DNA from: a virus
DNA: 35,479 nucleotides
UHGV virus genome: UHGV-0144289
Direction: 5' to 3' (one strand)
The notes beneath the pieces were generated by a model. It saw nothing but the letters and a program-made list of their open reading frames with translations, did no database searches and had not been told where the DNA came from. Both the position numbers and the translations under genes were made by a program. Every line of letters starts with the position of its first letter. Positions within the stretch are counted from its first letter, which is position 1. Positions 20,382-35,479 of this stretch are shown one piece after another.

Positions 20382-22372
20382 TGCGCGCGAACCTAATAAA
20401 AACCAATTTTACCGCGGGTGAAATTTCCCCGCGCCTGATGGGGCGTGTTGATATCGCCCGCTATGCCAACGGTGCAAAAATTATCGAAAACGCGGTGTGC
20501 GTGGTGCAGGGCGGTGTCGTTCGCCGACCGGGTACGCGCTTTGCCGCTGCCGCTAAATATGGTGACCGGACAGCACGACTGATCCCCTACGTCTTTAACC
20601 GCTCGCAGGCGTACATGCTCGAATTTGGCGACGGGTATCTGCGCATCTACCAGAACGGCCGGCAGCTGGTAAACGACGATAATACCCCGTATGAAATCGC
20701 CAGCCCGTACACCGTCGATATGTTGTCTGAGGTGAATTACGTGCAGGGCGCTGACACGATGTTTTTAGTGCACCAGAGCGTCCCGCCGCACCGCTTGCAG
20801 CGTAAGGGGCAAACTGATTGGGTACTGGAAGCCGCGCCGTTTATCGTGGAACCATTCGACGAAATCCGCGACACGCCGGAGAAATGGTGTAAGCCATCGG
20901 TTAAAGAATTCGTCGGCTCAGAAATCACGCTGACGCTCAGTGATGCCGAACCCGCAGATGATGACGATTCCCCCGCGTTTACTGGTACCGGCTGGATATC
21001 GGAGGACGTTGGTTCGTACGTTCGCATTAACAGCGGTCTGGTGCTAATTAAGAGCATCACCAGCGCGCAGATTGCTGTCGGCACCATCCGCACCGATTTA
21101 AGCGCAACGCAGGCGGCATCCCCCGGAGCCTGGACACGTGAAGATACTGTCTGGACGGAGGAATTTGGCTACCCCGGCGCGGTGACGCTGTACCAGCAGC
21201 GGCTGGTTCTGGCTGGTTCCCCGCAGTACCCGCAAACAATCTGGTGGAGCGAAACCGGCGTTTACCTGTCGTTTGAGCTGGGAACGGACGACGACGACGC
21301 GATCAGCTTTACGCTGTCTTCTGACCAGTTAAACCCGATCGTGCATCTGGCGCAGATGAATACGCTTATCGCGCTGACGTACGGCGGCGAGTTTACAATC
21401 ACTGCCGGCAGCGACGCGGCGATCACCCCGACCAATATTTCGGTAAAAAATCCCAGCCCGTACGGCTGCAACAGCATTCGCCCGGTTCGTGTCGGTACCG
21501 AAATTATGTTTATCCAGCGTGCCGGGAAAAAACTGTATGCCGTGGCGTATGACCCCGACAGCTACGTTTCGTATTCCGCCAATGATTTAACGGTGCTGGC
21601 CGAACACATCACGGCCGGCGGCGTCCTCGATATGGCGTATCAGCAACAGCCTGATGCGTTCGTGTGGCTGATCCGCGCCGATGGCGTACTGGTGACGATG
21701 GGTATCGACCGGGCGCAGGATGTAGTCGCATGGTCACGCCAGATCACCGATGGCGTTTTTGAATCGGTGGCGAGTATTCCCTCGGAAAGCGACGACGTGA
21801 TTTATGTTCTGGTGCGCCGGGAAGTTAACGGCCAGACCGTTCGTTATGTTGAAGTATTCGACAGCAACCTGAATACCGATTCCGCAGTAACCGGCTCCAG
21901 TTCAGAAGGTGCCACCACGTGGACAGGTCTTTCTCACCTCAATGGAAAAACGGTTGATGTGGTGGCCGATGGTTCCGTGATGCCGCAGGCAACGGTAACA
22001 GACGGGCAAATCACTCTCAGCCGCAAAGCGAAAAAAATCGAAGTAGGCCTGCATTACGAAACCACCATCCAGACGCTGACGCCGGAAATCTCAACGACCG
22101 AAGGCACCACGCAGAACGCCCGCAAGCGTACCAGCGAAGTCACGCTCCGCTTTATGGAAACCACTGGCGCGGAGTGCAACGGTCAGGTGATCCCCTTCCG
22201 TACCTTCGGCCCAAAAATCCTTAACCAGCCCGCGCCACTTTTCACCGGTGATCATTATTTCGGGAAACTTGGCTGGGAGCGCGGGGAAGACACTTTGATT
22301 ATTCAGCAACGCCAGCCGCTGCCGTTTCATCTGCTGGCGATTATTTTCACGTTCTCCAGCAACGGGGGCTAA
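20381..22372 (+). CDS. Tail tubular protein B-like (T7 gp12-like)
   Basis: 663 aa; size and position match T7 gp12; start overlaps the previous stop. Confidence 0.5.
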   Translation: MRANLIKTNFTAGEISPRLMGRVDIARYANGAKIIENAVCVVQGGVVRRPGTRFAAAAKYGDRTARLIPYVFNRSQAYMLEFGDGYLRIYQNGRQLVNDDNTPYEIASPYTVDMLSEVNYVQGADTMFLVHQSVPPHRLQRKGQTDWVLEAAPFIVEPFDEIRDTPEKWCKPSVKEFVGSEITLTLSDAEPADDDDSPAFTGTGWISEDVGSYVRINSGLVLIKSITSAQIAVGTIRTDLSATQAASPGAWTREDTVWTEEFGYPGAVTLYQQRLVLAGSPQYPQTIWWSETGVYLSFELGTDDDDAISFTLSSDQLNPIVHLAQMNTLIALTYGGEFTITAGSDAAITPTNISVKNPSPYGCNSIRPVRVGTEIMFIQRAGKKLYAVAYDPDSYVSYSANDLTVLAEHITAGGVLDMAYQQQPDAFVWLIRADGVLVTMGIDRAQDVVAWSRQITDGVFESVASIPSESDDVIYVLVRREVNGQTVRYVEVFDSNLNTDSAVTGSSSEGATTWTGLSHLNGKTVDVVADGSVMPQATVTDGQITLSRKAKKIEVGLHYETTIQTLTPEISTTEGTTQNARKRTSEVTLRFMETTGAECNGQVIPFRTFGPKILNQPAPLFTGDHYFGKLGWERGEDTLIIQQRQPLPFHLLAIIFTFSSNGG

Positions 22373-22824
22373 TGATGATCCGTAATGCAACCGCCGGTGA
22401 TATTCCGGCGCTTATCGAACTGGGAACCCGGATGTACCTGGAATCCCGCTATTCCGAAAACTCACCCTTTGACGCGGACAAATGCGCGGAACTGGCTGAG
22501 AGCCTGATTTATTCCCCCGCCGGATGCGTGCTGGTGGCAGAGAAAAACGGCCTGGTGATTGGCTGGCTCGGCGGCGGCATCGCGGAGCAGTTTTTTTCCC
22601 GCCAGTTGATGGCGTTTGAATATGGCCTGTTCGTCGCTCCGGAGTACCGGGGCGGCAGCGCGGGCCCACGGCTGGCCCGTGCATTTATCGAATGGTCGAA
22701 AGAACACGGCGCCGCAGTGATCAACATGGGGATCACCACGGGCGTCCATGCCGAACGTACTGGCCAGCTTTATTCCCGCCTCGGTCTGCAACGTACCGGG
22801 CTGCTTTATTCGATGGAGGTTTAA
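22372..22824 (+). CDS. GNAT-family N-acetyltransferase
   Basis: 150 aa; acetyl-CoA binding motif region LFVAPEYRGGSAGPRLARAFIEW; embedded between tail and internal virion protein genes. Confidence 0.7.
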   Translation: MMIRNATAGDIPALIELGTRMYLESRYSENSPFDADKCAELAESLIYSPAGCVLVAEKNGLVIGWLGGGIAEQFFSRQLMAFEYGLFVAPEYRGGSAGPRLARAFIEWSKEHGAAVINMGITTGVHAERTGQLYSRLGLQRTGLLYSMEV

Positions 22825-23320: not shown

Positions 23321-26032
23321 GTGAGAATTCCAACGGGTAATTTTGGTAATGTGACACCGCAGGCACAGCAGACGCGTGTCGCTGTTAGCAATGTAGGCAC
23401 TATAGGCAATGCGGTGTCTGGTTTTGGGACCGCTACAGGGCAGGTAGCAGAACAAGTACAGCATGAGCAGGATAAAGCCGATGTGGCAGCCACGCAGGCG
23501 ATTCTGACTGATCTGGAAGCTAAATCTAATGACCGCTGGGAAAACCCGGAGACGGGCGCCACGGTCACTCGTCAGGGCTTTAAATCGTCCGGTGTGGTAA
23601 CCGATATGGATAAGGCCGACGCTGGCGATTACGAGGAAGCGCGGAAGCGCGTACCGCCCAACCAGTTAAACTATTTTGATGCGCAGTGGAAAGCAGGGCA
23701 GGTACGCCGGACAAGTACCTACAGCGGTTTCGAGCGTGCACAGACGGATGAGGCCCAGCGGCAGCAGCTTAATGCGACGGTGACCACTTCCGTCGAACAA
23801 GAGGCCAGCGCATACGATAATCCGATGCAGGCAGGGCTGATACGTAGCGCCCGTAAACACTCGATCGAGATGTATGGCCAGGCGCGTGGCTGGCCGCAGG
23901 AGCGCATCGACGCGGCGGTATCAGAAGCGAACCAAAAAGCGCTGGAGCAGCGCGCGCAGAACTACGCGGTAACCAATCCCACTGGCTGGCTGAATGGCGA
24001 TTTTACGTTGATTAACAGCAGCACCGGCGAACTCGATATGCGCGCCGTTGGCCTGGTGGAGTCCGGTGGTAAGCACCGCAATGCGGATGGTAGTCTTGTT
24101 ACATCGCCCGCTGGCGCGCAGGGTGAATTTCAGTTGATGCCGGACACAGGGAAAGAACTGGCGGCTAAACGTGGCGTGGAATACAACCCGGACGATCCTG
24201 TGCAGCATGCGCAGCTGGCGCGTGATTATGCCGGGCAGCTCAGTAAAAAATACCAGTCAGAACCACTGGCCGGGGCCGCGTATAACTGGGGGATGGGTAA
24301 CGTCGATAAACTGATCGCCAAAGTGGGCGACCCGCGCAAAGGCGAAATCTCGATGGCGGATTTCGTTAAGCAGCTACCCGCAGAAACGCGCGGTTGGTTG
24401 TCCCGCTACAACAAAAATAAAACCGGTCTCGACCCGGTAGCAGTAAACAAAATCGACAATATCGCCGAAGCGCAGATCCGGCAGCAGCGTACGGCGCTGC
24501 GCCAGCAGATTGACCCGATTCTCAATAATACAATGGCGCAGCTGTATAACGGCGAGGTGCCGGATGCTATGCCGAACGCCTCCACCATTTTGTTTGCGTA
24601 TGGTGAGCAGGGGCAAACAGCGGTCAAGCAGCTGGATATCGCGATTGATAACGCCAGAACCTTCCAGGCTATTCAGTACGCCACCCCGGCAGAACAGCAG
24701 GCCGAACTGGCGAAGGTGAAGCCGCAGGCAAACGATCCCGATTTTGCGCTAAAACTTGATGCACACGGCAAACTTAGCGCGCTGGTGCAGAAGAGCAACG
24801 CCAATATTCAGGCGCAGCGCGACTCCGCCCGCTTTAACGATGCGCTGCTCTCCGGCGAGAAACTCGACCCGAGCAATAAATCTATGCAGAGGGCGGCGGA
24901 CAATACGCCATCGGCGCTTAATTTCCGCATTAACGATGCAACCACCCACGATGCTATCGTACAGCAGGTAAACCAGACCGGCATTGTTCCGTCGCAGGTA
25001 ACATCACAGCTCAATGCTATTTCCCGCTCCAGTAGCTCAGATGTAGTGAAGCAAGGCGCTGAAATATTCAATAGGCTTTACGACTCTAAATCTTCTAACG
25101 TCAGTGATATGCCAAAAGATATACAAAGTTTTTATCTGACAATTAAGCAATTGACCGAAGCTGGTATGGCTTCTGATGAGGCAGTGAAACAGGCACAGAA
25201 TATAACCTATAACCAGAACGATGCATTAAAAAATCAGTTAACTTCGACGCAGAGCACTAAAGAATATAAAAGCGAGCGAGATAGTGCTATGGATTCAGCT
25301 CGAAATAGTATGGCTCAGTGGTTCAGAATTGATCCAAAGGCAAGCGATACAACAACTGATGCAGTTAATTTTCGAAATGACTACCAGTCCCTTTACGATA
25401 TCAACTATCGAAATTCTGGTGGGAATTCTGAAATTGCCAAAAAAATGACCAACACTCAAATCTCTCGTAACTGGAGCATTAGCGAAGTGAACGGCAAGGC
25501 CCAGTTCATGAAATATGCACCAGAAGCACTATATAACTTTGGTCCGTCAGGTTGGCAGGCTGAACTGTGGAAAGAAAAAAAAGAGGAACTAATGTATGGC
25601 GAGCGTAATGAGGAGATCTCTACCAGCCCAACGCAGTTAGGAATCACGTCAGGAACTGCAACAAATATTATCTCAAACACCCCCGAGTCTAAAGTTGGTG
25701 GTGAATTGGAAATTGTGCCTGATGTATATACTCCAAGAATTAAAGATTATGCAATTTGGATTCGCTTTAAGGATAAAGATGGTAATGAAAAGGCACAGCC
25801 TTATAACGACAAATTTGGTAGGCAAATGCGGTGGAGGCCATCCCTAGAGGAATGGGGGCCTTACCAGAAAATGCAGAAGGAACGAGAGCAGAAAGAACAG
25901 GATGAAATTTCGCGCGGAAAAGATATTCGCGGATTTAAAGCGAAACATCGAGCATTGGATGAGCAGTACCAGCGTTTGCATGATGAGCGACTTGAACGTA
26001 CGAAAAATTATTTTTCATGGAGTAATGAATAA
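23321..26032 (+). CDS. Internal virion / ejection protein with lytic transglycosylase domain
   Basis: 903 aa; transglycosylase-like motif GLVESGGKHRNADGSLVTSPAGAQGEFQLMPDTG around nt 24050-24180, as in the N-terminal domain of T7 gp16. Confidence 0.65.
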   Translation: MRIPTGNFGNVTPQAQQTRVAVSNVGTIGNAVSGFGTATGQVAEQVQHEQDKADVAATQAILTDLEAKSNDRWENPETGATVTRQGFKSSGVVTDMDKADAGDYEEARKRVPPNQLNYFDAQWKAGQVRRTSTYSGFERAQTDEAQRQQLNATVTTSVEQEASAYDNPMQAGLIRSARKHSIEMYGQARGWPQERIDAAVSEANQKALEQRAQNYAVTNPTGWLNGDFTLINSSTGELDMRAVGLVESGGKHRNADGSLVTSPAGAQGEFQLMPDTGKELAAKRGVEYNPDDPVQHAQLARDYAGQLSKKYQSEPLAGAAYNWGMGNVDKLIAKVGDPRKGEISMADFVKQLPAETRGWLSRYNKNKTGLDPVAVNKIDNIAEAQIRQQRTALRQQIDPILNNTMAQLYNGEVPDAMPNASTILFAYGEQGQTAVKQLDIAIDNARTFQAIQYATPAEQQAELAKVKPQANDPDFALKLDAHGKLSALVQKSNANIQAQRDSARFNDALLSGEKLDPSNKSMQRAADNTPSALNFRINDATTHDAIVQQVNQTGIVPSQVTSQLNAISRSSSSDVVKQGAEIFNRLYDSKSSNVSDMPKDIQSFYLTIKQLTEAGMASDEAVKQAQNITYNQNDALKNQLTSTQSTKEYKSERDSAMDSARNSMAQWFRIDPKASDTTTDAVNFRNDYQSLYDINYRNSGGNSEIAKKMTNTQISRNWSISEVNGKAQFMKYAPEALYNFGPSGWQAELWKEKKEELMYGERNEEISTSPTQLGITSGTATNIISNTPESKVGGELEIVPDVYTPRIKDYAIWIRFKDKDGNEKAQPYNDKFGRQMRWRPSLEEWGPYQKMQKEREQKEQDEISRGKDIRGFKAKHRALDEQYQRLHDERLERTKNYFSWSNE

Positions 26033-28935
26033 TGCCAATTTACCCCACACCCAGCGAATTCAGTAATGGTTATATACCTGCTGGTAGCGCCCTGGATGCC
26101 CCAGTAGGGTTCGATATTGATTTACCTGAAGGTGCAAACCCGGAACCTCAACCGCCACAACCGTCCGTATGGAGCGCTGCATTCCGACAGAATAACCTAC
26201 TAGCAGGGATTTTTCGGCCTGCAAAACAATTTGAACCGGCTGAAGGGTATAACCCTTACGCTGATAAGAATGAAATTCACGGCTATGAGCAATGGGGATC
26301 TGCTTTCGCAGATTCTCAGTCACCAGAAGAAACAGCCTGGATTAAAAACCAGATTGACGATGAAAACGAAGACCGCCGTGTACTGTCCGAGGCTGGCACA
26401 GAGGGAACTTTAGCCAGTATCGCTGCTGGGGCTATCGATCCTGTCACGGTGGCTTCGATGTTCATCCCCGGCGCCCAGGGAACTCTGGTTGCGCGCATTG
26501 GTTCGCAGGTTGCTATCGGTGCTGCTGGTACCGCGCTTAGCGAGGTTGTGCTCAACAACGAACAGTATACCAGAACAGCCAGGGAGAGTGCCGCGCATAT
26601 CACAGCCGGCGCACTTCTCAGCGGTGTATTTGCTACTGCTGGCGCTATGATCACCCCATCGGTAAGAAATGCGGCAACCCGGGAAGTAGCCGAGGCGCTC
26701 GATAATATGAATGCCTCGCCAACGATTAATAACGCAGCCGACGCCCTGGCGGATACTTTACCGAACGGTGGCAGCGTCGGCGCTATGCGTATTCGCGAGG
26801 CGACGCTGGAAGACCTCACGCCAGTGTCCGGCGGCCCGCTCGGCAAGCTGGCTAAAAAGGCCGGTAGCTATCTGACGCCGATCACCCGCCTGATGGAATC
26901 CCCATCAAAAGAAGCGCGCCGGACAGCGCTGGAGCTGGCGGAGAATAACTTCACGCTGGAAGGCAACCTGCGCGGTATCGAAACTCCGGTAGCTGCCGAG
27001 ACGCGCGTACGTGGCTGGCGCCGCGAAGAGGCGGCCGTCGTTACTGCTAATAAGCAGGCATACACCCAGTATAAAGCCGAGGGCGGCGATCTGGGTTATA
27101 CGGCCTTCCGTGAACAGGTTGGTGAGGCGCTGCGTAACGGCGACGTGCACGTTAATGCGAAAGTGCAGGAAGCGGCGCAGGCAATGCGTACGGTCATTAA
27201 CCGCGTGAAGACAGCCCAGCAGGAACTGGGCTTACTCCCGCCGGATGCCGAATTGAAAGCGATGGGGCAGACCAGCTATTTCCCGCGCGTGTACAAGGTG
27301 GGGAAAATCGTTAGCGAGCGCGATAAATTCCGCAATATGCTGGTTGACTGGTGGTCACGCGGTGAGAAAACCATGTCCCGCGAAGATGCCGAAATCGCCG
27401 CCGATACCACTATTAACCGTATTGTCGGGGCCAAAATTCCGCAGGAGTTCGCCAACGTCTTTATGGTGAAAGCGCCGGGTAGCACTAAATCGCGTACGTT
27501 GAGTGTTCCCGATCGTCTGATGAAAGACTATCTGGAGAGCGATGCAAATTACGTCCTGCAGCGTCATATCCGCGAAGCCTCAGCGGAGATCGAATTAACC
27601 CGCACCTTTGGCAACAAATCGCTGGATTCGCAGCTTGCCGCCATCCAGGACGAATACGACGCGCTGATGCGTTTACGCCCGGCAGAACAGGAAAAGCTGG
27701 CGAAGGCGCGCGAAGCCGACCTGCGCGATATTCTGGCGCTCCGCGATCGCCTCGTTGGAACCTACGGTATGCCGGATGATCCATCATCATTTTTCGTTCG
27801 CGCCGGTGCTTTCCTGCGTAGTGCCAACTTTGTAACGAAACTCGGTGGCATGACGGTATCCGCTATTCCGGATCTGGCGCGCGGCATGATGGTTAACGGC
27901 TTCAGCAATACCATGCGTGGATATGGCGCGCTGATCACTCGATCACCGGCTTACCTCGCCAGCCGGGCGGAGCAGAAGAAAATGGCTGTAGGGCTGGAAA
28001 CTATTCTTCAAACCCGCTCGCGTACGATGGGCGATCTGGTGGATAGCTCTTCGCGCACCACTGCGATCGAAGCGGGCATGGAGCGCATTACCGATGTGTT
28101 CGGCAAGCTGACCATGATGGGCCACTTTGACGACATGAACAAATCGGTAAATGGCATGATTACTTCAGACGGTATTTTGTCAGGTGCGTTCCCGGCGAAA
28201 CGTCTGGCTAAGCTCGGCATCAATGACAAAATGGCCGAACGCATCCAGAAAGAGTTTCAGAAGCACGGCGAAGTCATTCAGGGCTGGCATATCGGCAATT
28301 TCGAAAAATGGGATGACCAGTACGCCGCCGGCTTGCTGCAATCTGCGGTACTGAAAGACGTAAACAATACCGTTATCACGCCGGGTATCGGTGATACGCC
28401 GCTATGGGCCAGTACCCCGCTGGGGAAAACTGTATTCCAGTTTAAGTCTTTTGCTACGGCATCCTATAACCGCGCGACGCTCGGTGGCCTGCAGGAAGGT
28501 ACCGCGCAATTCTATTACGGTACCGCCTTCCAGATTGGCCTGGGCTCATTGACCTATGCGCTTAAGCAGGCGGCTAACGGTCGCGAGGTTGATTTGACGC
28601 CGCAGAAGATGGTACTAGAGGGTATCGACCGTTCGGGTATCCTCGGCCCGCTGATGGAATACAACAACATGGCGGAAAAGGCATCTGGCGGCATGATAGG
28701 ACTTGGGCCATTGCTCGGCACCGGTACGCAATCCCGTTATGCCAGCCGCGGCTTTATCGGTTCTGCTCTGGGGCCAACCTTTGGCCTGCTGGATACTGTA
28801 ACCGATGTGACCGCTGGCGTGCTGAATGGCGACGCTGGAGACCGGGTCCTGCATAGCGCGCGAACGCTGTTACCGGGCAATAACCTGTTCTGGATCGCGC
28901 CGCTGATTAACCAGGTCGATCCCGGTATGCGTTGA
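26032..28935 (+). CDS. Large internal virion / DNA ejection protein
   Basis: 967 aa; position and size consistent with T7 gp15/gp16-type core proteins. Confidence 0.55.
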   Translation: MPIYPTPSEFSNGYIPAGSALDAPVGFDIDLPEGANPEPQPPQPSVWSAAFRQNNLLAGIFRPAKQFEPAEGYNPYADKNEIHGYEQWGSAFADSQSPEETAWIKNQIDDENEDRRVLSEAGTEGTLASIAAGAIDPVTVASMFIPGAQGTLVARIGSQVAIGAAGTALSEVVLNNEQYTRTARESAAHITAGALLSGVFATAGAMITPSVRNAATREVAEALDNMNASPTINNAADALADTLPNGGSVGAMRIREATLEDLTPVSGGPLGKLAKKAGSYLTPITRLMESPSKEARRTALELAENNFTLEGNLRGIETPVAAETRVRGWRREEAAVVTANKQAYTQYKAEGGDLGYTAFREQVGEALRNGDVHVNAKVQEAAQAMRTVINRVKTAQQELGLLPPDAELKAMGQTSYFPRVYKVGKIVSERDKFRNMLVDWWSRGEKTMSREDAEIAADTTINRIVGAKIPQEFANVFMVKAPGSTKSRTLSVPDRLMKDYLESDANYVLQRHIREASAEIELTRTFGNKSLDSQLAAIQDEYDALMRLRPAEQEKLAKAREADLRDILALRDRLVGTYGMPDDPSSFFVRAGAFLRSANFVTKLGGMTVSAIPDLARGMMVNGFSNTMRGYGALITRSPAYLASRAEQKKMAVGLETILQTRSRTMGDLVDSSSRTTAIEAGMERITDVFGKLTMMGHFDDMNKSVNGMITSDGILSGAFPAKRLAKLGINDKMAERIQKEFQKHGEVIQGWHIGNFEKWDDQYAAGLLQSAVLKDVNNTVITPGIGDTPLWASTPLGKTVFQFKSFATASYNRATLGGLQEGTAQFYYGTAFQIGLGSLTYALKQAANGREVDLTPQKMVLEGIDRSGILGPLMEYNNMAEKASGGMIGLGPLLGTGTQSRYASRGFIGSALGPTFGLLDTVTDVTAGVLNGDAGDRVLHSARTLLPGNNLFWIAPLINQVDPGMR

Positions 28936-28939
28936 TAGC

Positions 28940-29374
28940 CTAGTTACACGAACTAACAGTAACTGCATTGAAGAATGTTCCGGAGGGGTAGGTGTAAACA
29001 TATTGCATCTCCCCACCTAATCTAATGAATGAACCCAGTGGATTTTTATTCGTGCATAACCCATTTTTTGTTATTTCATCCATTCGAGATTTAGCAACGT
29101 CGATTGAAGTATGGGTCTCTGAAGCGGTAGCCAGCATTTCTTCTTCGGTTACGCCTAGCCTTACCTGCGCGATTATTTTGTTTCCATCAGCAGAAACATC
29201 TTTCATTATTACGTTTTCTGATAACGTTAAGGGCAGTCTGGGGCGTACCTGAGTGACGATTTTCTGAGCCTGTTCGCATACATCAAACTCAGTTAAGTTT
29301 GGTTTACACTTATCTGCTGCGAATGCCGGATGTGAGATCATTACTAATATCGAAATTAGACCAATTTTTTTCAT
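28940..29374 (-). CDS. Secreted protein of unknown function (moron, opposite strand)
   Basis: 144 aa; N-terminal signal peptide MKKIGLISILVMISHPAFA-AD; four Cys in the mature part; AT-rich; has its own A/T-rich promoter region at 29375-29460. Confidence 0.7.
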   Translation of the reverse strand: MKKIGLISILVMISHPAFAADKCKPNLTEFDVCEQAQKIVTQVRPRLPLTLSENVIMKDVSADGNKIIAQVRLGVTEEEMLATASETHTSIDVAKSRMDEITKNGLCTNKNPLGSFIRLGGEMQYVYTYPSGTFFNAVTVSSCN

Positions 29375-29463
29375 GAAAAATAAACGCCTTTAGCTGAGTG
29401 TTAGGTATAAGAAACATTTAACAAAAAACCATACAGCGATCAATTTTATAATTAGATTAGAAA

Positions 29464-29480
29464 TAGTCAGGATTCCGACC
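29464..29480. repeat. Late-region hairpin motif TAGTCAGGATTCCGACC, copy 2
   Basis: Same 17-mer at 34300-34316; preceded by a TATAAT-like element. Confidence 0.8.
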
Positions 29481-29527
29481 TCTAAGCCGACACATCATAG
29501 CCCTATGGATAAACACGGGGCTTTTTT

Positions 29528-29869
29528 ATGCATTCAGATTACAAAACTCGCCTTACTGCTCTTAGCGATAAGCTCACCGACGTAGTTCTGGAAGAAGCCG
29601 ATCCGGATAACTGGCCGGGGGCAGGGAAGGAAATCACAAAGCACACTAAACAGGAACGCGGTGATCGGTACTGGCATAAGAAGAACGCGGCCGCATCGCT
29701 GACGCTGCTGGTAAAAGTCCATTCGCTGATTGGCATGCATACGCGCGGGGGGACGCCTAAACCCGGCGAGGATCCGGACGATGAAGCATTCCGCCTGGGG
29801 CAACAGGTATCTGCGGCTGAACGGGCAGCACAGGAAGTTATCGAACGCATACAACAGCGGAAAAAATGA
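29528..29869 (+). CDS. Putative terminase small subunit
   Basis: 113 aa; immediately upstream of and overlapping the large-subunit gene by 4 nt; assignment by position only. Confidence 0.4.
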   Translation: MHSDYKTRLTALSDKLTDVVLEEADPDNWPGAGKEITKHTKQERGDRYWHKKNAAASLTLLVKVHSLIGMHTRGGTPKPGEDPDDEAFRLGQQVSAAERAAQEVIERIQQRKK

Positions 29870-31476
29870 TTTCATTCGTCGCCTTTTTCATCATATGGGC
29901 GGAGCGGATGGGGTGGGAGGTTCCCGACTGCCATTATCGAGCCTGCCACTGGTTGGAACACCGCGGGGATCTCGCGGTGCTTCGCTGTTTTCGTGGCTTT
30001 GGTAAATCTACCATTCTGGCGGTGTATAACGCATGGCGATATTACCAGAACCGCCAGTACCGCATTCTTCACCAGTCTGAAGCTGACGGCACCGCGTACA
30101 AAACCAGCCGCGATACGCAGAACGTTTTACGCAATCACCCACTGACCAAAGGCATGCTACCGGACGGACAGGGAACCGTTGAACAGTGGTGGGTTAACGG
30201 CTCTCTGGATATGCGTAACGGCAGCATGTACGCAAAGGGGATCCTCTCTAACGTTACCTCGGCCCGCGCTGATGAATGCCAGAACGATGACGTAGAAGTA
30301 CCCCGCAATATCCAGACGCCAGAGGCGCGGGAAAAGCTGCGTTATCGTCTCGGTGAACAGACACACATTCTTGTCCCCGGCGGGCGAAAGCTGTTTATCG
30401 GCACGCCGCATACCCACGATAGCCTTTACGATGAGGTTGAATCTATGGGCGCCGACTGTCTGACCATCAAACTATTCGGTAAAGAATTTAGAATCGAGGA
30501 AAAACAGGCCACTGCGAGCCGTTACTCGTTACCGTTCCGGCCGGAATATGTTTTCGTCGGTATTCACATTGGCGCGCGACTGCTCGTTGAAGGTGTTGAT
30601 TATCGTCTTAACGATGACGGTATCGAGTTTGCCGAGGCTCCCGGCACCACGGTTGACTGTTACGCCGATTGTGAATGGCCAGAAAGGTTCACTCCGGAGG
30701 AAATGACAAAGCGCCGTCGCGAGACTCGCACAATTAACGAATGGGACAGCCAGTACCAGCTGCACAGTAAACCGGTTGGCGAGGTTCGTCTCGATCCCGA
30801 CCGCATACGCGAATACAACGTACAGCCTGAAATCCGGTACGCGAACCGCTCCTGCTCGATGTGGCTTGGCCAGACGCAAATTGTTGGTGCTGTTGCCTGG
30901 TGGGATGTGGCCACCGGCAAAGTTAAGGCCGACGCCTCGGCGTTCTCTCTGATTTTCACCGACGCACGCGGGCATCTGTACTGGCATGTTTGCCAGGGGC
31001 TTACGGGCGAACTGGCGGAATTCGACGACAACGACAAAATCACCGGCGGTCAGGTGATGCAGATTAAAGAGCTGGTGCTTAAATACCAGATCCCGCTGGT
31101 CTGCGTCGAGGTGAACGGCCCGGGCAGCTTTGCCGGGAAATTGCTGATTCAGGCACTAAAGGGTACCGGCTGCGGCGTACGGGAAGAATTCAGCGTGACC
31201 AATAAACAAAAGCGCATCCTCGATGCATTCGAAGCGCCGCTGTCGTCGCGCTTCCTCTGGGCGCATACCGACGTGCTCGACGGCCCAATGTATGACCAGA
31301 TGCGCGACTTTAACCCGGCGCTGACTAATCAGCCAGATGACTTTATCGACTCTGGCTCTGGCGCAATCAGCTCAACACCAGTGCGCATTGGTAAATTGGT
31401 CGGGATTCCGACCGCACAGGCGCGGGAACATTGGCAACCAAATGATGGCGATCACATGGTCGCCGTAGATTACTAG
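29866..31476 (+). CDS. Terminase large subunit (T7 gp19-like)
   Basis: 536 aa; Walker A-like FRGFGKST in the N-terminal ATPase domain, acidic catalytic residues downstream; size matches T7-type terminases. Confidence 0.8.
   Translation: MISFVAFFIIWAERMGWEVPDCHYRACHWLEHRGDLAVLRCFRGFGKSTILAVYNAWRYYQNRQYRILHQSEADGTAYKTSRDTQNVLRNHPLTKGMLPDGQGTVEQWWVNGSLDMRNGSMYAKGILSNVTSARADECQNDDVEVPRNIQTPEAREKLRYRLGEQTHILVPGGRKLFIGTPHTHDSLYDEVESMGADCLTIKLFGKEFRIEEKQATASRYSLPFRPEYVFVGIHIGARLLVEGVDYRLNDDGIEFAEAPGTTVDCYADCEWPERFTPEEMTKRRRETRTINEWDSQYQLHSKPVGEVRLDPDRIREYNVQPEIRYANRSCSMWLGQTQIVGAVAWWDVATGKVKADASAFSLIFTDARGHLYWHVCQGLTGELAEFDDNDKITGGQVMQIKELVLKYQIPLVCVEVNGPGSFAGKLLIQALKGTGCGVREEFSVTNKQKRILDAFEAPLSSRFLWAHTDVLDGPMYDQMRDFNPALTNQPDDFIDSGSGAISSTPVRIGKLVGIPTAQAREHWQPNDGDHMVAVDY
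31398..31413. repeat. Late-region hairpin motif GGTCGGGATTCCGACC, copy 3 (inside the 3' end of the terminase gene)
   Basis: Part of an identical 20-mer shared with 18685-18704; ~80 nt upstream of the tail-fibre start. Confidence 0.8.
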
Positions 31477-34603: not shown

Positions 34604-35123
34604 GTTCAGCGCCGCTATGCTGGCGCTTCTGGCCGCCGGTGCATCTGCACCGGTACTGTTCGATCAGTTTATCAGCGAAAAAGAAGGTAACGCGCTGGTG
34701 GCCGTTGTTGACCCCGGCGGTGTGTGGTCATTGTGCCACGGAGTAACCGTTATAGATGGCAAGCGTGTCATTAAGGGCCAAAGAGCAACTGAGGAACAGT
34801 GCAGGAAGGTAAACGCCATTGAGCGTGATAAGGCGCTGGCCTGGGTAGAAAAGAATGTGCTCGTTTCTTTGACGCCGCCGCAGAAGGTCGGCATAGCCTC
34901 ATTCTGCCCGTACAACATCGGGCCGGGTAAGTGCTTCCCCTCAACGTTCTATCGCAAGCTGAACGCAGGCGACCGTAAAGGTGCATGCGCGGAGATCCGG
35001 CGATGGGTGTTCGACGGAGGCCGGGATTGCCGACTGACCAAAGGCCAGAAGAATGGCTGCTACGGGCAGGTTGACCGCCGCGATCAGGAAAGCGCTTTGA
35101 CGTGCTGGGGGCTGTACGAATGA
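34587..35123 (+). CDS. SAR endolysin (signal-anchor-release lysozyme, phage-21 R-like)
   Basis: 178 aa; N-terminal SAR segment [19 protein letters not shown], catalytic-region motifs [20 protein letters not shown] and [23 protein letters not shown] similar to R21. Confidence 0.85.
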
Positions 35124-35479
35124 ACGGAAAAACCAAACTGGTGATTGTTGGTGGCGTGCTGGCGGTATGCGCCGGGATTTACTGGGCGGGGTATCTGAAA
35201 GGCTGGTACGCACATTCAGAGCAAGTAAACAGCCAGGCTAAACAAAGGCTACCGAAGCAGGAAAAGGCAGTTGCCGCTGGTGAGCAGAAAGCAGCGACGG
35301 CGAACGCCGAAGCCAAAGTGATTTACCGTACCGTTTATCGTGATGTGGTGAAATATGTCAATGACCCGAATCGTACTGTGTGCCAGTTTGATCCTGCTGC
35401 TGTGCAGCTGCGCCAACGAGCAATCGACGCGGCCAACGCCATCCCCGGATTTGATGAACCGACCGTGCAAGATAAGTAA
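35120..35479 (+). CDS. Rz-like i-spanin
   Basis: 119 aa; N-terminal transmembrane helix (LVIVGGVLAVCAGIYWAGYL) followed by coiled-coil periplasmic domain; start overlaps endolysin stop. Confidence 0.7.
   Translation: MNGKTKLVIVGGVLAVCAGIYWAGYLKGWYAHSEQVNSQAKQRLPKQEKAVAAGEQKAATANAEAKVIYRTVYRDVVKYVNDPNRTVCQFDPAAVQLRQRAIDAANAIPGFDEPTVQDK
35355..35479 (+). CDS. Rz1-like o-spanin embedded in the +1 frame of Rz (3' end beyond the window)
   Basis: Out-of-frame ORF MSMTRIVLCASLILLLCSCANEQSTRPTPSPD... with lipobox LLLCSC and a Pro-rich mature part. Confidence 0.6.
   Translation, partial: MSMTRIVLCASLILLLCSCANEQSTRPTPSPDLMNRPCKIS

Follow-up and report, generated by a model that had tools for sequence, protein, structure and literature searches.

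Near the right end of the viral genome UHGV-0144289 (35,479 nucleotides [nt], analyzed over its whole length and hereafter called the window), one gene of 144 codons is read in the direction opposite to that of the surrounding virion and packaging genes. The window is a complete ~35-kb prophage of the Klebsiella type, which extends from integrase to lysis genes and lies beside the glyW-cysT-leuZ tRNA cluster, and the gene in question converges with that of the last internal virion (ejection) protein, which resembles T7 gp16. Here, we describe this gene, its predicted periplasmic product, and the large family to which the product belongs, and we consider the reading that we favor, to which we assign a probability of about 40%: that the prophage expresses this product as a binding protein of the periplasm, where it keeps the DNA of related phages from entering the cell.

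The open reading frame (ORF; 28940-29374, minus strand) starts with ATG and differs sharply in composition from its surroundings. Its GC content is 40.5% (37.9% at third codon positions [GC3]), versus 55.9% (GC3, 59.8%) for the preceding gene and 55.1% for the terminase genes, and the GC content of the 124 nt upstream of it (29375-29498) falls to 33.1%. All other minus-strand ORFs of at least 90 amino acids (aa) between position ~12 kb and the window end are nested in longer plus-strand ORFs, the longest of them in the portal gene, which itself has a PHROG match; 28940-29374 is therefore the sole credible minus-strand gene of the late region, as a preliminary description of this DNA had stated. 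That description also called the gene a moron within the virion module. The placement is correct, as this is a low-GC, opposite-strand, self-contained cassette in the virion/packaging module of a complete prophage. The gene is not a one-off insertion: rather, it is a recurrent, position-locked accessory gene of a phage group.

Whereas no family had initially been recognized, the protein matches PHROG 8772 (function unknown) from end to end (residues 1 to 144 of 144; E = 1e-67) and is a member of it; PHROG 8772 is unannotated, so membership brings no functional information. A profile search of 1.84 billion cluster representatives recovered 243 clusters at E ≤ 1e-3 (108 at E ≤ 1e-10), most of which are ~145-aa proteins with a signal peptide, and a word-indexed search returned four close clusters, one from Klebsiella michiganensis with 98% identity and the others with 52 to 54%. 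In some members, the domain is duplicated in tandem or is fused to Sel1 repeats or to domains of the LprI/DUF1311 type. Other members, outside the set placed in a genomic context, come from Proteus and Rahnella. Given the full-length PHROG match, the 243 profile clusters, and a confidently predicted structure (mean predicted local distance difference test [pLDDT] of 91.8), we regard 28940-29374 as a real gene, not a chance ORF, and as a member of a large, uncharacterized family with the fold of AspS and PA3611. Pfam, NCBIfam, and PADLOC scans of the window protein and 95 relatives yielded no meaningful match. In the same set, no model for lysozyme inhibitors (Ivy, MliC/PliC, PliG, or LprI), adhesins, defense systems, or type VI secretion system (T6SS) immunity proteins (Rap1a) was matched, and the searches against lysozyme-inhibitor, exclusion/defense, and adhesin families that the preliminary description had proposed thus came back empty. 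Neither the region nor the window protein nor protein P0018 was matched in Megablast and tblastn searches of the INPHARED phages, and family member P0016 matched there solely via its ejection-protein-like part. A tblastn search of PLSDB plasmids gave no match, and a literature search found no paper describing this protein family.

The translated ORF bears out the earlier account of a 144-aa protein with a cleavable signal peptide and four cysteines (exactly four, at positions 23, 33, 107, and 143). The signal peptide was assigned by rule (MKK, a hydrophobic run, then AFA↓AD) and is the only part of the protein with low confidence in the AlphaFold2 (AF2) model (pLDDT of 60 to 73 over residues 1 to 20). 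The cleavage region, AFA↓ADKC, does not contain the lipobox motif [LVI][ASTVI][GAS]C, and a lipobox-like string occurs in 2 of 127 stand-alone family members. No hydrophobic segment follows the signal peptide in the window protein. Read in this way, the sequence identifies the product as a Sec-exported, signal peptidase I (SPase-I)-processed, soluble periplasmic protein of ~125 aa.

Across the 95-member alignment, P48, C107, G120, and C143 are invariant and C23, C33, A36, L47, F116, G121, and Y127 nearly so, and the family pattern (C..C / LP / C / F.xLGG / Y.Y / C) is fully present in the window protein. The conserved columns are limited to cysteine, proline, glycine, and residues with aromatic or aliphatic side chains; acids, bases, and nucleophiles of the kind expected in an active site are missing from them. 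The conserved set appears structural, without catalytic-type residues, and is that of a binder rather than an enzyme. The four conserved cysteines probably form two disulfides, C23-C33 and C107-C143. In an alignment comparison (as opposed to distances in the model), the spacing between the invariant C107 and C143 is 36 residues, versus 37 for Cys74-Cys111 of AspS.

Structure prediction, which the preliminary description had suggested, gave a confident alpha/beta fold of the AspS/PA3611 type. A first AF2 model built from a four-sequence alignment (pLDDT of 47.7) was discarded; the model used here derives from the 95-sequence alignment and has a pLDDT of 91.8 and a predicted template modeling score of 0.80, with elements in the order a1-b-b-b-a-a-a-b-b. 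Foldseek returned exactly three significant matches (3npd, 5e-7; 4ftf, 4.6e-5; and EpsS 6i2v, 8.4e-5), the next match being at 0.076. On the basis of this model, the window protein has a fold whose only other known examples are the AspS/EpsS secretin pilotins and PA3611. AspS itself has the order a1-b1-b2-b3-a2-a3-b4-b5-a4 and a conserved Cys74-Cys111 disulfide that it shares with PA3611, and PA3611, a periplasmic nonlipoprotein without a known function, contains a hydrophobic groove as well as an additional helix following b3 (PMC3542185). Pilotins of the AspS fold bind a C-terminal segment of the secretin (PMC3542185). At the sequence level, identity to AspS and to PA3611 is 13%; a PDB sequence-profile search produced only noise and detected no relation to PA3611, and a search of the BFVD viral structures gave nothing at E ≤ 1e-3. 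Even at E = 10, the T2SSS_2 model PF16549 finds no match in the window protein; its matches in 3 of the 95 relatives and in P0020 are weak and sub-threshold (best E = 0.0016). The window protein, as read from its sequence and surroundings, falls short of a pilotin in its defining features, having no lipobox, no match to the family model, and no linkage to type II secretion system (T2SS) genes.

We located family members in 35 places, namely, the window, 14 IMG/VR contigs, and contigs obtained by exact-protein look-ups. In 29 of them, the family gene converges with a gp16-like gene, the stop codons being 0 to 4 nt apart or overlapping by 4 nt, and in two more it lies ~1 kb from the gp16-like gene with small accessory ORFs between the two. 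Prophage ejection-protein or immI contexts account for 31 of the 35 places, and none is near gsp genes. Exceptions are L012, where the gene lies in a small island close to folD and cysS, and a single place that three metagenomic contigs (L031-L033) have in common. In the latter, the gene for P0007 (35% identical) occupies a nonprophage site between a radical-SAM/AAA_28/HD set and ApeA-HEPN plus MmeI/Eco57I-type genes, a neighborhood that looks like a defense island. The slot is kept in 10 lineages whose family proteins are 26 to 57% identical to that of the window, with an 11th (L027/L028) at the ~1-kb distance, and the neighboring ejection proteins of these lineages have diverged to 41 to 56% identity. 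Source-named hosts of the placed proteins include Klebsiella, Raoultella, Serratia, and Yersinia.

Among closer relatives, the family protein is 43 to 57% identical, versus 89 to 98% for the gp16-like C terminus and 84 to 91% for the large terminase subunit (TerL). Along the DNA, identity drops from ~0.9 to ~0.5 across ~28,900 to 29,500 and recovers at a conserved box and hairpin. Because the gene and its AT-rich leader diverge jointly between conserved flanks, they behave as an allelic cassette that is swapped as a unit. The convergent stops (0 to 4 nt apart, or overlapping by 4 nt in L010) leave terminator room for neither gene, so late transcripts must cross the moron in antisense, just as transcripts of the moron must continue in antisense into the ejection-protein gene. 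Such mutual read-through may couple expression to the lysogenic or lytic state.

Upstream of the gene, the preliminary description had noted a separate A/T-rich region and a late hairpin repeat. The AT-rich stretch is there, and the gene may have its own promoter, but the lone promoter-like site is no better than chance: a scan for promoters and terminators gave counts at the chance level. The hairpin is also real, but it is not repeated in the window (no second copy at up to three mismatches) and belongs to the terminase leader. Together with its T6 run and the palindrome AGTCAGGATTCCGACC, it is conserved in 11 relatives, including Escherichia coli prophages without the family gene (the palindrome, for example, is present in L001 and L002, neither of which has the gene). 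Since it is conserved upstream of terminase genes even in these E. coli relatives, we assign the hairpin to the terminase leader and not to the moron. No compensatory pairs were counted in the aligned relatives, and the hairpin is no more stable than shuffled sequence (z = -0.77). The palindrome and hairpin could serve as a regulatory site of the terminase operon, an attenuator, or a packaging site.

Table 1. Features at and around the opposite-strand gene of UHGV-0144289 (window positions)
Feature	Position	Strand	Remarks
Coding sequence of the exported family member (PHROG 8772; AspS/PA3611-fold family), 144 aa	28940..29374	-	Stop codon 28940-28942
Signal peptide MKKIGLISILVMISHPAFA, codons 1-19, predicted SPase-I cut AFA↓AD, without lipobox	29318..29374	-	Read from sequence
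Mature periplasmic domain (predicted), ~125 aa, a1-b-b-b-a-a-a-b-b	28943..29317	-	95-sequence alignment and AF2 secondary structure
Interval of 4 nt between the convergent stops of the gp16-like and family genes	28936..28939		No room for a terminator
Allele-specific AT-rich 5' region (33% GC) with AAGG Shine-Dalgarno-like motif and -10-like hexamer	29375..29464	-	Varies jointly with the gene allele
Promoter-like site (-35-like, 29470-29465; -10-like, 29448-29443)	29470-29443	-	Score of 9/12
Invariant imperfect palindrome AGTCAGGATTCCGACC, right-hand conserved flank, outside the moron	29465..29480		Alignments of relatives
GC hairpin (29499-29522) and T6 run, adjoining the start codon (ATG) of the 113-aa ORF that precedes TerL	29499..29528	+	Conserved in relatives
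Last internal virion (ejection) protein, 967 aa, T7 gp16-like without transglycosylase domain	26032..28935	+	PHROG 342, E = 2.7e-194
Internal virion protein in gp15 position, SLT transglycosylase domain	23321..26032	+	PHROG 1044; Pfam SLT, E = 1.2e-9
113-aa ORF (PHROG 9277, unknown) and TerL (536 aa)	29528..31476	+	PHROG matches, annotation of relatives

The same slot can be occupied by other genes. In the E. coli 23GD11002 prophage (L001:6939-7331, minus strand), it holds an unrelated secreted protein of 130 aa that likewise ends in Cys-Asn; 6 of 10 homologs of this protein have a sub-threshold match to Rap1a (T6SS immunity; best E = 0.007), and a Serratia homolog with 66% identity carries the name Rap1a in UniRef. 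On comparison, this occupant proved not to be a relative of the family. In phage TL-2011b (L036; NC_019445, 29853-32244), the slot contains an unrelated transmembrane-anchored gp39, gp40, and then Arc and Ant; the end of gp39 (C...YY.DSG...C) looks similar by eye, but a relationship was rejected (hhalign probability of 0.2%). In L027 (4608-6403), an Arc-like ribbon-helix-helix protein and Ant lie upstream of the family gene, with a DUF2335-like membrane protein between the family and ejection-protein genes. In relatives such as L027 and TL-2011b, the slot thus widens to an immI-like region.

Two family members that occupy the slot after an ejection-protein gene, P0014 (287 aa) and P0016 (290 aa), are fusions. 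Each is composed of a signal peptide and family domain, a linker, a copy of ~100 residues of the gp16-like N terminus, and a C-terminal hydrophobic helix with a basic tail. The copied segment matches the gp16-like N terminus of the protein's own phage (E = 2e-15 for P0014 and 2e-19 for P0016), and the two proteins match the gp16-like protein of the window at E = 2e-14 and 1e-14, respectively, the segment corresponding to the first ~145 residues of the latter. P0014 and P0016 align over their full lengths at 33% identity, which argues that the fusion architecture is old and retained. Residues 26 to 966 of the window's gp16-like protein match positions 205 to 1226 of the PHROG 342 profile, and a weak but collinear BLASTP alignment pairs residues 111 to 232 with T7 gp16 residues 314 to 430 and residues 797 to 823 with 1101 to 1127. 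Judging from this alignment and from the start of the match at profile position 205, the copied segment would correspond roughly to the part of T7 gp16 after the transglycosylase domain, that is, to the end of the "molecular tape" and the first membrane region; the first putative membrane region of T7 gp16 spans residues 243 to 410 (PMC8954989). A periplasm-facing, membrane-anchored copy of the gp16-like N terminus is how a decoy for conduit assembly would be expected to look.

The arrangement at the slot recalls that of the exclusion gene sieA in phage P22. There, sieA has a promoter of its own and is read against gene 16, which encodes the last ejection protein and ends 22 nt away; mnt, arc, and ant (immI) and the tailspike gene lie beyond sieA. 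Homologs of sieA are invariably located between genes 16 and 9, and SieA blocks DNA injection, with escape mutations mapping to the ejection proteins gp16 and gp20 (PMC10883804). Several relatives of the window have Arc, Mnt, Ant, or Bro genes adjoining the family gene, and in five (L006, L010, L034, L035, and L037) the interval from the slot to the tailspike contains, among called genes, just small accessory ones (encoding Arc/Mnt/Ant, ORF6N, or Bro-N or lacking annotation) and no match to either terminase subunit (TerS or TerL); in the window, the terminase genes intervene between the slot and the tailspike gene. Homology between the window protein and SieA itself was rejected (hhalign probability of 0.1%).

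Of the functions first suggested for this gene (superinfection exclusion or a contribution to host fitness or virulence), exclusion is favored because of the synteny with ejection genes, the slot and orientation shared with P22 sieA, and the fusions to the gp16-like N terminus, whereas virulence rates low. In the mechanism that we propose, the gene would be transcribed leftward from the prophage, with strong late transcription running antisense through it, and its product would accumulate in the periplasm of the lysogen. There, it would intercept the unfolding ejection proteins of superinfecting phages with the same architecture and prevent assembly of the trans-envelope DNA conduit, resulting in exclusion at the step of DNA entry. 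The ejection proteins of the resident phage, being made in the cytoplasm, would never meet it. In P0014 and P0016, the gp16-like N-terminus copy and the inner-membrane anchor would form a decoy for the partner of the gp16-like N terminus. Both expression from the prophage and binding to ejection proteins are presumed in this scheme; a block of phage DNA entry in the periplasm has a precedent in the HXS system (PMC13128918). A broader proposal, which we advance a shade more tentatively, is that these proteins constitute a new class of exclusion proteins: soluble, periplasmic, pilotin-fold proteins in temperate podophages with T7-type ejectosomes, which would capture incoming ejection proteins, have membrane-anchored gp16-like decoys as their fused versions, and form the counterpart of P22 SieA.

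Several observations weigh against an exclusion role. The allele of the gene does not covary with that of the gp16-like N terminus, giving no sign of a coevolving pair. Leftward expression from the prophage is hypothetical, and the single promoter-like site compares with 1.8 expected by chance. None of the cultured phages in INPHARED carries a member of the family. The family also extends beyond prophages with ejection genes, as seen from the Sel1 and LprI/DUF1311 fusions and from stand-alone copies in nonphage contexts, and its domain may be a general periplasmic binding module. The slot takes unrelated cargo as well (for example, the Rap1a-like secreted protein of the E. coli relative), such that position alone may mark merely a permissive site for morons. 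Finally, the window protein itself has neither the decoy segment nor the anchor that make the fusions persuasive.

The alternative that survives best, although we consider it rather unlikely, is that the gene is a moron for lysogen fitness encoding an orphan periplasmic immunity or inhibitor protein directed against an external enzyme that acts in the periplasm (a T6SS amidase or other effector, a lysozyme, or a lytic transglycosylase). A small, exported, predicted disulfide-bonded protein without catalytic-type conservation would suit this role. Family domains are fused to Sel1 repeats in P0039 and P0076 and, by a weak match (E = 2.5e-4), to an LprI/DUF1311 lysozyme-inhibitor-type domain in P0048, and P0020 is named a YecT/DUF1311 protein in its source. 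The sub-threshold Rap1a match of the E. coli slot protein points in the same direction, and the SLT domain of the preceding virion protein offers a possible target. Against these stand the lack of any Ivy, MliC/PliC, PliG, LprI, Rap1a, or T6SS immunity model match in the scans described above, the fact that an effector gene is nearby in none of the loci, and the fusions to the gp16-like N-terminus copy, which an immunity or inhibitor function leaves unexplained. Dedicated inhibition of the SLT domain is unlikely, as the ejection proteins of many host phages have no SLT match on record (L006, L013-16, L034, L035, and L037). Were the protein an immunity or inhibitor factor after all, its family would be a new one among the orphan immunity or inhibitor proteins that prophages carry.

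Improbable, to our minds, is a soluble pilotin-like chaperone or competitor that binds the S-domain of a secretin (of a T2SS, a type IV pilus, or filamentous-phage pIV) and thereby alters secretion or removes a pilus receptor. The idea draws on the only structural relatives of the protein (AspS, EpsS, and PA3611), on the weak PF16549 matches of 3 of the 95 members and P0020, and on PA3611, itself proposed as a periplasmic binder of secretins (PMC3542185). The lack of a lipobox would preclude Lol piloting to the outer membrane, identity to AspS and PA3611 is low, PF16549 fails to match the window protein, and gsp or pil genes never adjoin the family gene, whereas ejection-protein genes nearly always do. 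A further point against a pilotin-like role is that the Klebsiella T2SS secretin PulD uses a pilotin of the PulS type, which is unrelated to the AspS type.

Slightly less probable still is a secreted factor for host interaction or virulence, or another envelope-fitness factor unrelated to phage or toxin defense. The product is an exported protein from a cassette of foreign composition, and one report describes PA3611 as acting on bronchial epithelial cells (PMC8860233); nothing indicates export past the periplasm, and the strict linkage to ejection genes across hosts of differing life styles would be left unexplained. That the gene is nonfunctional (a chance ORF or decaying remnant) can practically be dismissed: only the chance-level score of the promoter-like site speaks for it, in the face of an intact ORF, Cys, Pro, and Gly columns conserved over 95 aligned members and 243 clusters, a fold predicted with high confidence, and retention of the slot in 10 divergent lineages.

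With respect to the remainder of the window, the genes for tRNA-Gly(gcc), tRNA-Cys(gca), and tRNA-Leu(taa) lie at 151 to 452, directly before a minus-strand integrase gene (583 to 1599), and the stop codon of the last lysis ORF (35102 to 35479) is the end of the window; it is on these grounds that we consider the prophage complete. (L001, the relative from E. coli, has its end next to yecA and tyrP.) Early genes after the tRNAs run from the integrase through Gam-like, exonuclease, and O-like and DnaB-like replication genes. In the late region, the portal, major head, and tail genes precede those for the internal virion proteins (GNAT, SLT-containing, and gp16-like) and are followed, beyond the 144-aa gene, by the 113-aa ORF, TerL, tailspike, holin, lysozyme, and the last lysis ORF. 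By position alone, the 113-aa ORF is probably the small terminase. A GNAT acetyltransferase gene (22372 to 22824; Pfam E = 3.8e-11), located just before the SLT-containing gene and kept in L001 and L011, may encode an ejected acetyltransferase. In the K. michiganensis relative (L003:2693-3938), the tailspike and holin genes are separated by a radical-SAM/SPASM gene and two ORFs of 63 and 58 aa, none of which occurs in the window; the site resembles a second slot for morons, which may hold a peptide-maturation or defense module.

An exclusion function would be of interest in several respects. Little is understood as yet of how podophage ejection proteins build a DNA conduit through the envelope, and few natural inhibitors of the process are known (P22 SieA, in the inner membrane, and the recently described HXS). 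If our reading is correct, this family would provide a genetic and biochemical handle on conduit assembly and would supply the first function for the nonlipoprotein branch of the AspS/PA3611 fold. It would also explain why prophages of Klebsiella, Serratia, Yersinia, and Proteus repeatedly carry this unannotated gene and would be relevant to phage therapy, in that such lysogens may resist related phages. A prophage accessory gene, probably protective, in a sieA-like slot is familiar; new for that role are the protein family, the fold, and the compartment, and fusions of the decoy type are unusual.

Among proteins of the same fold, PA3611 (PDB 3NPD) is the nearest in kind: it too is periplasmic, has a signal peptide but no lipobox, and carries an additional helix behind b3. 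It differs in being encoded by a chromosomal gene of Pseudomonas aeruginosa, in having an unsettled molecular function of its own, and in showing no detectable sequence relationship to the window protein. The T2SS pilotins AspS, EpsS, and GspS-beta (PF16549; PDB 4FTF, 6I2V, and 5ZDH) share the AspS alpha/beta fold, but the window protein has an SPase-I site in place of a lipoprotein signal, is only 13% identical, and does not match PF16549. Moreover, relative to AspS, it gains one helix and a Cys loop at the N terminus (C23-C33) and has no C-terminal helix a4, and its gene lies in a prophage beside ejection-protein genes, with T2SS genes never adjoining members of the family.

Among exclusion systems, phi80 Cor, T4 Sp, and T4 Imm are small, envelope-located proteins that stop DNA entry after adsorption. 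Exported or lipoprotein exclusion proteins such as T5 Llp and TP-J34 Ltp act on the same principle, which is that proposed for the window protein, and the periplasmic gatekeeper HXS likewise is an envelope-located block of DNA entry after adsorption (PMC13128918). All of these (Llp, Cor, Ltp, Sp, Imm, and HXS) differ from the window protein in that they are unrelated in sequence and fold, target receptors, the tape-measure protein, or DNA, and in no case have a pilotin fold. The functional model is P22 SieA, which is expressed from the prophage and blocks the ejection-protein conduit. The sieA gene shares with the gene described here both slot and orientation: it converges with the gene for the last ejection protein (at a gap of 22 nt, versus 4 nt in the window) and precedes immI and the tailspike. 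SieA, however, is a multipass inner-membrane protein without a signal peptide and occurs in phages with ejection proteins of the P22 type rather than the T7 type.

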